Part shown: positions 46,373 through 49,534 of the stretch, piece by piece | Position numbering within the stretch: position 1 is the stretch's first letter | Layout of the letters: each line of letters starts with the position of its first letter | Assembly (NCBI GenBank): GCA_945787155.1 | Contig: CALZHD010000003.1 | Location: 2,455 to 66,454 of the forward strand | Direction: 5' to 3' | Length of the DNA: 64,000 nt | Source: an uncultured Gammaproteobacteria bacterium | GTDB lineage: Bacteria > Pseudomonadota > Gammaproteobacteria > SZUA-140 | The notes under the pieces: model-generated | What the model saw: the letters and a program-made list of their open reading frames with translations, nothing else | Told to the model about the DNA's origin: nothing | Databases searched by the model: none | Position numbers and translations under genes: made by a program

Positions 46373-47398
46373 TCAGGCATTAAGATAGTTCACCCGCTCC
46401 ATCAAATAACAGAGACAGTCCTGTCTCACCACCTTTTTGTCCTGAGTCAACATTGATGGCACTAACGGTATTCGGGTACGAATCTCACCGTCCTGATAAC
46501 TGAAATAGCGATCACCAACATCCTCTCCCTGCTCATTACGGACATCGAGTGACACAGCACCACGCTCAATGCGCCCCAATAGCGTTCCGCTTGCCAGCTC
46601 CGAGAAATTGAAGCGGTCAACATCTGCCACCATTTGCAGCGCAGCCTTATCAGCACCAAAACCGATCGTAACAGCTTGCGGCACCTTCACGATGGCGACG
46701 GTATGAAACAGATCGATATCGCGTACGCTGAGTGACTGTTGCGGCAAATGCTCAAGGTGTAGACAGCTTTTGAGAAACTCATAAGCGTGCTCAACTCCAA
46801 AAGGCTGCCCCGGCCGACCACACTCCAGTGTCACCGCAGGACAGAGCCGTGAAAATGCCATCGACTGTACCGTATCGGGCCGTAGAAAATAGACCACAGT
46901 ACGACTGAATCGTTGCGCCAGATGGAGAAACTCAGGGGCCAGACTATTAACACATGCATAGTGTGGATTGGTACCTGTATTGTTATGGATATCGATACTG
47001 ACAAACACCTTGCGTAAGCACATCTCATCGATCACCTGCCGCGTCATCAGATGTTCAGCGCCATTCCCGTCCGACCACACCCGATTATAGTCTGGCTGGC
47101 CATCCAGGTGACGTCGCCCCTGCGCCGCCGCCGTTATATTACCGATAAATATTGACAACGCGCGAGGCAGTGCAGATGAGCGATATTCCCGTAATAACTT
47201 GCATAGTGCCAGCCAACCACTCACTTCATTGCCATGCAGCAGCACCGAGACAAACAGTGGCGCTGACCGCTTCCCCGGTAGATGGATTAACGTCGGTCCC
47301 GATAACCTCTGAGCCAACTGGCTCGCCTCCAGCGCTAATAGCCCATCAGGCAAGGCATCCAATATTGTCAGCATTCTCGTCTCACTCACACGCTCCAT
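46373..47398 (-). CDS. AstE/AspA-family (M14-like) zinc deacylase/carboxypeptidase
   Basis: 341 aa with the HGNE zinc-binding motif (LLHGNEVSG) and a downstream DIHN motif. This is the succinylglutamate desuccinylase/aspartoacylase superfamily; the substrate is unknown. Confidence 0.7.
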   Translation of the reverse strand: MERVSETRMLTILDALPDGLLALEASQLAQRLSGPTLIHLPGKRSAPLFVSVLLHGNEVSGWLALCKLLREYRSSALPRALSIFIGNITAAAQGRRHLDGQPDYNRVWSDGNGAEHLMTRQVIDEMCLRKVFVSIDIHNNTGTNPHYACVNSLAPEFLHLAQRFSRTVVYFLRPDTVQSMAFSRLCPAVTLECGRPGQPFGVEHAYEFLKSCLHLEHLPQQSLSVRDIDLFHTVAIVKVPQAVTIGFGADKAALQMVADVDRFNFSELASGTLLGRIERGAVSLDVRNEQGEDVGDRYFSYQDGEIRTRIPLVPSMLTQDKKVVRQDCLCYLMERVNYLNA

Positions 47399-48822
47399 TC
47401 ATGTACTGGCTCACCATTATGCTGGCGCTCCATATAGGCGCTCGCCAGCTGCTGCATATCAGCACCGTGTCGTTTCACATAGGCGCGCTGCCACACCGCG
47501 CCGTTTTGTCTGCGGCGCACGCGCTGCTCAATCACCCCAAGATAGCGACTGATATCAGATGCTGAGATCTGTAACGCCTCAAGCCCACTCTGCGCGAGTG
47601 GCAACAACTCTTCCAACAGCAACTCCGCCATACAAATGGTTTTGCCTCGCAGCCACTTCGGTCGCGACTGCAATCCGTAGCGAGCAGCACCGTAAAAGTT
47701 CGCTCTACAATCTTCAAACTGAAGCTGCGACTCAGGCGCTGTCACCGCACTGCCCATCGCCTGCACCAGGCCAAAAAATAATGCGGCGTTAGCAACACAA
47801 TCAATCACTGTCGGCCCAGCCGGTACGACGCGGTGCTCAATCCGCAGGTGTGGCACACCGTTGTCAAAACCGATCAGCGGACGGTTCCAGCGCCAGATAG
47901 TCCCGTTATGCAACCGCACATATGCCAGCTTGTCGCTCACATCCCCCAGCACTACCGGTAACAATACCGGGTAGTACGCCAGGTTCTCTTCAAAACACTC
48001 CAGCAGCGACTCCTTCGCATAACCAAAACCAAAGCTAACACGGTCAACAATATTGTTATCACGGCCAACTCCGCATCGCTCCACTGCCACCGACTGCTCA
48101 AACAGAGGAATGCGCGTCTCATCCCACAACGCCTTGCCAAACAGATAGGGTGAATTTGCCGAGACCGCCACCATCGGCGCAGAAAGAATCTGAGCCGCAT
48201 TATAAAAACGCACCGCATTCGCCATGCTGACCTGAAAGTGAATCTGGAACGAAGTCGCTGCTGCTTCGAGCATCACATCTCGATGCGTGGTACGCAAAGA
48301 CTCAATGCCGTGAATATCGAGTGCCAGCGGGAGCCCTTTACGCCGCCGAAACACCTGTTCATTGAGGGCTCGGAAACGCTCGGTGGAAGACATATTGGCC
48401 AGTGTCAATTCGTGCTCACGCACCGTCGGTAGAATCCCGATCATCTGCAGCGACGCATCAAGCTGTGTCGCAATCTGGCAGGAGTGACGCCATGTTTCAG
48501 CAAGACCTGTCTCAATCGCATTCAGCGCACCACCACTCAAGCGCTGTGGATCACCATTAAGCTCTACATTGAATTTAGCCAGCTCGGGGACTACAAGTGG
48601 GTTGTCTGAAAGATGCAGAAACGACTCATTGACAGGCACAGGACGACAACGGCTATCGACCAACCACGCCTCCAGCTCAAAGCCACCTCGAGGCCACTCA
48701 TCGATAAAACGCTGCTCACTGAACCATCGCCGCAGCAATCCTGTCTCCTCATGTAACCGTTTTGAGAATCTTTCAAAGTCCTGCTCACAAAAATGGCTAC
48801 TCGGGATATCCTCGCCCATCAA
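47386..48822 (-). CDS. Glutamate-cysteine-ligase-superfamily carboxylate-amine ligase (GshA-like)
   Basis: 478 aa. Motifs align with E. coli GshA by eye: GFELEAWLV versus GLERETLRV (ExE), HFQVS versus HYNFSL, and NSPYLFG versus IPYLFGASP. It overlaps the downstream deacylase by 13 bp. Confidence 0.55.
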   Translation of the reverse strand: MMGEDIPSSHFCEQDFERFSKRLHEETGLLRRWFSEQRFIDEWPRGGFELEAWLVDSRCRPVPVNESFLHLSDNPLVVPELAKFNVELNGDPQRLSGGALNAIETGLAETWRHSCQIATQLDASLQMIGILPTVREHELTLANMSSTERFRALNEQVFRRRKGLPLALDIHGIESLRTTHRDVMLEAAATSFQIHFQVSMANAVRFYNAAQILSAPMVAVSANSPYLFGKALWDETRIPLFEQSVAVERCGVGRDNNIVDRVSFGFGYAKESLLECFEENLAYYPVLLPVVLGDVSDKLAYVRLHNGTIWRWNRPLIGFDNGVPHLRIEHRVVPAGPTVIDCVANAALFFGLVQAMGSAVTAPESQLQFEDCRANFYGAARYGLQSRPKWLRGKTICMAELLLEELLPLAQSGLEALQISASDISRYLGVIEQRVRRRQNGAVWQRAYVKRHGADMQQLASAYMERQHNGEPVHEWSV

Positions 48823-48844
48823 CTACCTCATTTCCGGCCGCAAC

Positions 48845-49534
48845 TCACTTATCTCTATTCACCACGCCTTTTGCCCTTAAAAGCTCATCATCAAGTTCAT
48901 TAAGACGCTCCGCTGTTCCGACATCAACCCAGCCACCACGATAGTGCTCACCACTGACCTGACCCTCTGCCATCGCCTGCCTCAACAGCGGTGCCAATGG
49001 AACACAGCCTTCGGGTACCGCCTCAAATAGCTCAGCACGATAGACCCCAATACCACTGAAAGTGAGTTTTTGCGTTCCCTCACTCCGCACATGCCCGTCC
49101 TGCAATGCAAAGTCCCCCCCCTGATGAAACAGTGGATTATTAACCAGCACCAGATGAGCAAATCCTACTGGCATCGCCGGTAATGTCCCAAATGGAAAAT
49201 CGGTCCAGACGTCGCCATTCACCACAATAAACGGCCCTTGCCCCAATAGCGGCAGCGCATGCTTGATACCACCCGCCGTCTCCAGTCCAACGGCACCTTC
49301 AGCAGAATAGTAAATATGCGCGCCATAGCGGTGGCCATTGCCAATCGCCTGTTCGATCTGCTCACCCAGCCATGCAAGATTGATTACAATCTCCGTAATC
49401 CCGGCGCTGACCAGCGAGCGAATATGATGTGCGATTAGATAATCCCCGCCCACTTTCAGTAGTGGCTTGGGCGTTTCATCAGTTAATGGACGCATGCGCT
49501 CACCCCGTCCCGCCGCCAGGATCATCGCCTTCAT
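48845..49534 (-). CDS. murU: N-acetylmuramate alpha-1-phosphate uridylyltransferase (MurU-like nucleotidyltransferase)
   Basis: 229 aa, starting [26 protein letters not shown], with VNGDVWTD and [13 protein letters not shown] motifs very similar to Pseudomonas MurU as I recall it. Confidence 0.75.

Follow-up and report, generated by a model that had tools for sequence, protein, structure and literature searches.

A carboxylate-amine ligase and an AstE/AspA-family zinc hydrolase form a conserved, often fused pair beside murU in an uncultured gammaproteobacterium

A stretch of 64,000 nucleotides (nt) from an uncultured Gammaproteobacteria bacterium (GenBank assembly GCA_945787155.1, contig CALZHD010000003.1, positions 2,455 to 66,454; hereafter the window) was analyzed with a focus on three adjacent genes, which encode the uridylyltransferase MurU, a carboxylate-amine ligase and a zinc hydrolase. 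The conserved unit is the pair of ligase and hydrolase, not the trio that includes murU. The two proteins are divergent members of two known superfamilies and make up a conserved, often fused and uncharacterized module that matches no characterized pathway found. The pair may work in the cytosol as a self-contained synthetase/amidase couple that makes and cleaves a gamma-glutamyl-type amide of an amino acid, an explanation that is preferred here with some hesitation. A literature search found no paper describing the pair; an earlier mention in computational work is possible.

All three open reading frames (ORFs) are co-directional on the minus strand, as a preliminary description of this DNA had reported. 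As longest ORFs they span 48845..49534 (229 amino acids, aa), 47386..48822 (478 aa, starting with TTG) and 46373..47398 (341 aa), with a gap of 22 nt between murU and the ligase and an overlap of 13 nt between the ligase and the hydrolase. With refined gene starts, the locus contains the following features, in which GCL denotes glutamate-cysteine ligase and AF2 denotes AlphaFold2:

48845..49534, minus strand: murU, N-acetylmuramate alpha-1-phosphate uridylyltransferase, 229 aa, first gene of the unit (NCBIfam NF045761, Pfam NTP_transferase)
47386..48819, minus strand: carboxylate-amine ligase with GCL/YbdK (GCS2) fold, 477 aa (Pfam GCS2, AF2 model; longest ORF from TTG 48822)
46373..47374, minus strand: zinc amidohydrolase of the AstE/AspA (succinylglutamate desuccinylase/aspartoacylase) family, 333 aa (Pfam AstE_AspA_cat, AF2 model; longest ORF from 47398, 341 aa)
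48826..48829, minus strand: ribosome-binding site GAGG, 6 nt 5′ of the ligase ATG (read from the sequence)
49553..49578, minus strand: intrinsic-terminator hairpin and T tract, ~19 nt 5′ of the murU ATG (terminator scan, fold)
46327..46369, minus strand: long perfect hairpin with a stem of ~20 bp, −36 kcal/mol, directly after the hydrolase stop (ViennaRNA fold of 46310–46375, sequence)

Because each of the ligase and hydrolase families returned more than 7,000 hits at 55–60% identity, the ORFs are real genes and not chance. The ligase most likely starts at ATG 48819, which gives 477 aa and a 25-nt spacer after murU, because the family consensus opens with MGxEI, copies at NCBI are 477 aa long and GAGG lies 6 nt upstream. 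The hydrolase probably starts at ATG 47374, giving 333 aa and an 11-nt spacer after the ligase, because its family consensus opens with MLTxLD and the nearest homologues are ~333 aa long. The 13-nt overlap was seen again in 9 related loci; in the window, the ATG behind it arises within the codons for the conserved …HEW with which the ligase ends, so that the overlap is probably a longest-ORF artefact. The junctions of 22 and −13 nt and the ligase length of 478 aa in the preliminary description therefore describe the longest ORFs, but give way to spacers of ~25 and 11 nt and, most likely, a protein of 477 aa once the starts are refined. The tight spacing of ligase and hydrolase is consistent with translational coupling.

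Conservation was assessed at several scales. A profile search of 1.84 billion cluster representatives with the ligase gave 3,442 relatives and 1,017 clusters (50% identity) at E ≤ 1e-30, and a scan of one genome per species found a ligase relative encoded in at least 596 species genomes. For gene linkage, 80 related loci were compared using tblastn and ORF clustering; 76 of these had room for a downstream hydrolase. A hydrolase homologue followed the ligase in 74 of the 76, two of them with an insertion of 1.2–1.5 kb between the genes. Loci with the pair come from Gamma-, Beta- and Alphaproteobacteria, Cyanobacteria (Synechococcus H65.1, Anthocerotibacter) and Verrucomicrobia, with 50–60% identity between phyla. 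Sedimenticola thiotaurini, Kordiimonas lipolytica, Nitrosomonas marina Nm71 and Synechococcus of Thermostichus type are candidate carriers in culture. The two genes are also fused in frame in at least eight lineages (P0037, P0114, P0246, P0252, P0256, P0264, P0355 and locus L023), encoding proteins of 823–837 aa that are 36–57% identical to the window proteins and always have the ligase first and the hydrolase second. Because 50–60% identity is kept across phyla and fusion has recurred, the family very probably performs one defined reaction pair. The adjacency and the repeated fusion bear out the earlier proposal that the ligase and the hydrolase work as a conserved functional pair, a proposal against which a lack of linkage in other genomes would have counted. 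No third partner gene joins them: clustering of neighboring ORFs revealed nothing beyond lineage-level synteny, and four ORF clusters (2, 3, 5 and 6) that were considered as partners lie inside the genes of the pair and murU but on the other strand, and were read as antisense shadows.

The first gene encodes a true MurU. Its product scored 318.3 bits against the NCBIfam equivalog NF045761 (cut-off 250), matching at full length (1–216 of 226), and also matched Pfam NTP_transferase; the MurU-like assignment made previously was thus correct, as was the statement that the kinase gene amgK is not adjacent, since no amgK homologue was found in the 64-kb window. Of the 80 related loci, 51 have a murU homologue directly 5′ of the ligase, in the same orientation and mostly no more than 100 nt away; these 51 are all of gammaproteobacterial sulfur-oxidizer type. 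In the remaining 29, among them the beta- and alphaproteobacterial, cyanobacterial and verrucomicrobial loci, murU was not beside the pair, and clustering of the neighboring ORFs found no other gene conserved there. The preliminary description had taken the three-gene operon as the unit; this does not hold, since murU is joined to the pair only in loci of the one gammaproteobacterial type.

Linkage of murU to amgK was counted in the 46 murU-bearing loci with sufficient upstream sequence. Of these, 12 have amgK directly upstream of murU, 8 have it at a distance of 0.6–3 kb, and 26 lack it on the upstream side; in these 26 loci, the upstream gene is rho, hemH, an HDOD gene or gpsA, the last being the case in the window too. 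In one locus (L083), a gene for a fused ligase-hydrolase directly follows amgK-murU and stands ahead of a gene for a YkuD L,D-transpeptidase. The ancestral array was likely amgK-murU-ligase-hydrolase, from which amgK repeatedly split off while murU remained with the pair. The linkage of murU to the pair can reflect either shared function or selection against breaks inside a shared transcript, and both fit equally. A gene for a membrane acyltransferase of the HGSNAT_cat family (PF07786) is divergent beside amgK in two loci (L082, 4969–5709, minus strand; L083, 1967–2698, minus strand) and may be a further component of the N-acetylmuramate (MurNAc) recycling neighborhood.

The ligase passed Pfam GCS2 (PF04107) with a local match over residues 194–243 (27 bits, cut-off 21). 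Its AF2 model (predicted template modeling score, pTM, 0.83) matched YbdK (1r8g, E 1e-10), plant GCL (2gwc) and yeast GCL best, with Foldseek E values of 1e-10 to 6e-9 and target-normalized template modeling (TM) scores of 0.62–0.79 for YbdK and plant GCL; E. coli GshA came next, and Dop, PafA and glutamine synthetase were more distant. The GCL superfamily membership assigned in the preliminary description is therefore upheld. Residues invariant in the family include the GhExE motif (G47-F-E49-L-E51), N85/E87, Q193/H195, N223-S-P225 and E329-H-R331, and the motifs TSFQIH, ANSPYLFG and RIEHRV aligned, weakly, with E. coli YbdK in hhalign. The GhExE motif is a superfamily signature with a role in binding Mg and ATP (PMC2588565). 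Because this and the other GCS2 motifs are invariant, the ligase looks catalytically competent, and an ATP-dependent acyl-phosphate mechanism like that of YbdK and GCL would be expected; since it depends on ATP, it is predicted to be cytosolic.

The resemblance of the ligase to these enzymes has clear limits. Identity to YbdK and GCL is only ~15%, and the window ligase is ~100 residues longer than YbdK and has family-specific invariant inserts such as HNGTIWRWNRPLIGF. Constant pairing or fusion with a zinc hydrolase is not known for YbdK or GshA. Neither the ligase sequence nor the family profile matched any PDB sequence, GCL included. Against the curated NCBIfam models for gshA, YbdK and EgtA, the ligase fell below every cut-off, and its only hits were PRK13515 (18.3 bits, cut-off 371) and TIGR02050 (16.6 bits, cut-off 176); hhalign of the family against E. 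coli GshA gave no alignment (probability 0.2%). Searches with E. coli GshA, GshB and YbdK as queries gave no hit across the window and the related loci (1.2 Mb). The ligase is therefore very probably not a canonical GshA, as had been suspected, and the label 'glutamate--cysteine ligase' that public sources give to family members is probably a mislabel.

The hydrolase passed Pfam AstE_AspA_cat (36.6 bits, cut-off 25; AstE/AspA family, PF24827/PF04952). Its AF2 model (predicted local distance difference test, pLDDT, 89.5) matched AstE (1yw4, 1.3e-12) and aspartoacylase (2gu2, 1.9e-12) best, in agreement with the earlier description of a zinc hydrolase of AstE/AspA fold. Matches that covered both domains were AstE, aspartoacylase, aminoacylase 3, DoeB and CphZ; for this group, which includes AstE entries 1yw4 and 1yw6 and aspartoacylase entries 2gu2 and 2o4h, the two-domain fold was shared at E ~1e-12 with TM scores of 0.55–0.6. 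Invariant residues were H55-x-x-E58, R96, N105-R106, H138, R166 and E192, and the HGNE, D.NR and LE.GK motifs aligned with the zinc and catalytic motifs of AstE; the zinc ligands (H-x-x-E…H), the catalytic Glu and the Arg/Asn-Arg carboxylate clamp are thus conserved. The N-terminus has no obvious signal sequence, and the enzyme is predicted to be cytosolic.

As with the ligase, the hydrolase stands apart from the characterized enzymes. It is 12–18% identical to AstE/AspA enzymes, has extra invariant cysteines and lies outside any arginine, ectoine or cyanophycin catabolic context; no ast genes were found near it. Among the specific NCBIfam models, it scored below AstE PRK05324 (21.5 bits, cut-off 170) and aspartoacylase PRK02259 (16.9 bits, cut-off 180), and sequence and profile searches of the PDB gave weak AstE hits only. 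The relation to the peptidase MpaA proposed in the preliminary description is real as regards a shared M14-type catalytic domain, but it is remote: MpaA (4axv) ranked 45 among the fold matches (E 8.5e-6, 217 aligned columns, catalytic domain only), against ~1e-12 for AstE and aspartoacylase, and the Pfam and NCBIfam scans gave no MpaA hit. MpaA is a single-domain protein of ~240 aa, whereas the hydrolase has an additional C-terminal domain of AstE type. Four cysteines of the hydrolase are invariant (C149, C193, C328 and C330), one adjoining the catalytic Glu and two in the C-terminal motif DCLCYLMER; these might be a second metal site or a redox switch.

Relatives outside the pair-bearing clade were also compared. 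In a sister clade with 35–41% identity (P0360, P0373–P0376, P0378, P0382–P0394; loci L086–L093), the ligase is 615–660 aa long and ends in two CBS domains, a sign that ligand binding may regulate it. A consistent AstE partner was looked for in this clade and rejected: a 430-aa AstE-like protein follows the ligase in one case (L087–L089) of the four looked up and is missing from the other three. Two loci of this clade have an 87-aa ORF (L092, 3310–3573; L093, 3500–3763) that shares 4 nt with the beginning of the gene for the CBS-type ligase; it has no Pfam match and could encode a small partner protein. Stand-alone actinobacterial ligase genes also exist, and these and the CBS-fused relatives (35–41% identity) are mostly without an adjacent hydrolase. 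Because of this, the ligase appears able to work alone, the hydrolase being a partner added in the clade of the window, and the ligase product can be an end product by itself. Carriage of the pair on plasmids was considered and rejected; the relatives that came up were all distant, stand-alone ones of actinobacterial or haloarchaeal type. Three records labeled 'Halobacteria archaeon' (one) or 'Enterobacteriaceae' (two) carry the pair with 50–56% ligase identity to the window (L024, L035 and L068), the first two also with a murU homologue; all three are probably mis-binned or mislabeled.

In a synthetase/amidase couple, the ligase would depend on ATP and Mg, activate a carboxylate as an acyl phosphate and join it to an amine. 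The acyl donor would most likely be the gamma-carboxylate of glutamate, since characterized members of the GCL/glutamine synthetase superfamily typically phosphorylate this group and transfer it to an amine (PMC2588565). The amine of the window enzyme would be that of an amino acid, and the zinc hydrolase would cut an N-acyl-amino-acid bond to leave an amino acid with a free alpha-carboxylate. Characterized AstE/AspA enzymes hydrolyze the N-acyl bond to an amino acid bearing a free alpha-carboxylate. Most economically, the hydrolase would cleave the ligase's own product, and the two enzymes together would set the level of an amide of gamma-glutamyl-amino-acid type. In Gammaproteobacteria of sulfur-oxidizer type, the pair would have been placed behind amgK-murU and would still be co-transcribed with murU, with amgK repeatedly separated; the murU linkage would then reflect operon structure, not shared chemistry.

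The observations on which the synthetase/amidase explanation rests are the identities of the genes, the folds, the intact catalytic motifs, the conserved adjacency, the fusions and the non-membership of the ligase in the gshA models. A precedent for its logic is glutathionylspermidine synthetase/amidase (Gss), in which an ATP-dependent amide ligase and an amidase for the same bond occur together or fused, so that the level of the conjugate can be set. The window pair would likewise make and cut one gamma-glutamyl conjugate. The likeness is one of logic only, since the systems are non-homologous: in Gss, an ATP-grasp ligase is joined to a CHAP cysteine amidase, whereas the window pair combines GCS2 and AstE_AspA domains.

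Several points weigh against a synthetase/amidase couple. If the hydrolase undoes the bond that the ligase makes, the two would waste ATP in a cycle in the absence of regulation, and the clade of ligase-hydrolase pairs showed neither a regulator nor a regulatory domain. Fused enzymes more commonly catalyze successive steps of a pathway than opposing reactions. The assignment of glutamate-pocket residues leans on weak alignments (hhalign probability 12%) and on known structures. Finally, murU keeps to the pair more faithfully than to amgK, which is missing upstream in 26 of 46 loci, and this faithful linkage could be a real functional tie to cell-wall recycling.

Such a tie is the substance of one alternative, held here to be unlikely, in which the pair is a module for recycling peptidoglycan peptides alongside AmgK and MurU. 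The hydrolase would trim or split stem peptides as an amidase resembling MpaA or LdcA, acting on a peptide that ends in meso-diaminopimelate (mDAP) or D-Ala, and the ligase would either re-attach a peptide or an amino acid, much as Mpl does, or convert a carboxylate to an amide, completing the bypass together with UDP-MurNAc from MurU. The gene order speaks for this alternative. A true murU is present, directly upstream of the pair in 51 of 80 loci on the same strand and usually at less than 100 nt; the order amgK-murU-ligase-hydrolase is found in 12 loci, and another 8 have amgK at up to 3 kb; murU remains with the pair where amgK is gone and rho, hemH or gpsA lies upstream; and the L083 fusion sits between amgK-murU and the YkuD L,D-transpeptidase gene. 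The M14-clan enzymes MpaA and Csd4, which cut gamma-D-Glu-mDAP, are among the fold matches of the hydrolase, with which MpaA shares its M14-type catalytic domain. The wider distribution of the pair argues against it, however. Beta- and alphaproteobacterial, cyanobacterial and verrucomicrobial pairs have no adjacent murU and no conserved cell-wall gene near them, and the window itself is without amgK. The murU linkage is limited to one gammaproteobacterial locus type, where it could be due to selection against splitting a shared transcript, and MpaA is a distant match to the catalytic domain only, whereas the matches to AstE and aspartoacylase extend over both domains. Mpl is a member of a different ligase family, and the known UDP-MurNAc:peptide ligases are all of the Mur ligase family and none has the GCL fold.

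A second alternative, likewise judged improbable, is that the enzymes do not oppose each other and instead catalyze consecutive steps of one short pathway to a net new metabolite. The hydrolase could deacylate an N-acyl amino acid whose freed amine is then gamma-glutamylated by the ligase, or the ligase could build an amide on an N-acylated substrate from which the hydrolase then strips the acyl group. Recurrent in-frame fusion and tight coupling are typical of such enzymes, characterized AstE/AspA enzymes remove the acyl group from N-acetyl or N-succinyl amino acids (with AstE, aspartoacylase, aminoacylase 3 and DoeB among the fold matches), and stand-alone sister ligases are compatible with a hydrolase that merely supplies substrate. 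The neighborhood of the pair, however, has no conserved gene for an acylating enzyme, a transporter or any further step of a pathway, and no candidate metabolite is known for the taxa that carry it. The fixed order of ligase and then hydrolase in the fusions is uninformative on the order of the reactions.

Reversible modification of a protein C-terminus or side chain, as by RimK, in tubulin glutamylation or by PafA/Dop, is considerably less probable. Here the ligase would add glutamate or another residue and the hydrolase would remove it in the manner of a carboxypeptidase. PafA and Dop share the ligase fold and are present among its matches, and the hydrolase has a zinc site of carboxypeptidase type with an Asn-Arg clamp suited to a free C-terminal carboxylate. 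The 50–60% identity between phyla could reflect a conserved macromolecular substrate, but is also expected from horizontal transfer; moreover, the flanks of the pair contain no conserved small ORF and no candidate target gene, and the enzymes with the closest folds act on small molecules (YbdK and GCL in the case of the ligase, AstE and aspartoacylase in that of the hydrolase).

Ordinary glutathione biosynthesis, with the ligase as the gamma-glutamylcysteine ligase GshA, agrees with the public naming and the GCL fold but is the least probable of all, because no curated gshA or EgtA model is matched, neither the family profile nor hhalign connects the ligase to PDB GCLs or E. coli GshA, the constant partner is a zinc hydrolase and not gshB, which was found in neither the window nor the related loci compared, and the family turned up here among Cyanobacteria only in Gloeobacteria- and Thermostichus-type lineages, whereas glutathione is general in that phylum.

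The pair might represent a widespread and unrecognized metabolite cycle, present in at least ~600 species, in which a gamma-glutamyl or other acyl conjugate of an amino acid is made by the ligase and removed by the hydrolase and which, in sulfur-oxidizing Gammaproteobacteria, is wired into AmgK/MurU recycling, for example of stem-peptide fragments; this broader proposal is doubtful. With the substrate identified, thousands of annotations would be corrected, a new small amide metabolite could come to light in autotrophic oxidizers of sulfur and ammonia and in early-branching cyanobacteria, and it would become clear whether the murU linkage marks a new branch of peptidoglycan recycling.

The limits of the three-gene unit are marked on both sides. 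Upstream, the terminator at 49553..49578 (11 stem pairs followed by GTTTTATGAG in the terminator scan) closes a preceding 275-aa ORF. Downstream, the hairpin at 46327..46369 faces a convergent DUF465 gene. A sigma-70-like promoter was looked for between the terminator and the murU start (49535..49552) and none was found; transcription of murU, the ligase and the hydrolase by read-through or from a promoter within the upstream ORF are both possibilities. The 275-aa ORF (49615..50442, minus strand), just 5′ of murU, has a hydrophobic, signal-like N-terminus; it gave no Pfam or NCBIfam match and has no counterpart in the 80 related loci.

The rest of the window is an ordinary segment of gammaproteobacterial chromosome. 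All sizeable ORFs were scanned against Pfam or NCBIfam, which identified the his operon, a murA-type (EPSP_synthase-family) gene, mla genes, tldD/pmbA, yhdP, rng, pilSR/pilBCD and bio genes, together with deaD, cca, gpsA, secB, gpmI, envC, ctpA, ubiEJB and hslU. Rfam and tRNA scans of the window gave no match. Two ORFs had no Pfam match at E 1e-10, one of 245 aa (33078..33815, minus strand) and one of 151 aa (25103..25558, plus strand); the latter directly precedes pilB-like genes and could encode a pilin. The longest ORF of mlaE (9694..10575, minus strand) overlaps that of an mlaF-like ABC ATPase (10470..11288, minus strand) by 106 nt, and mlaE probably starts further downstream.

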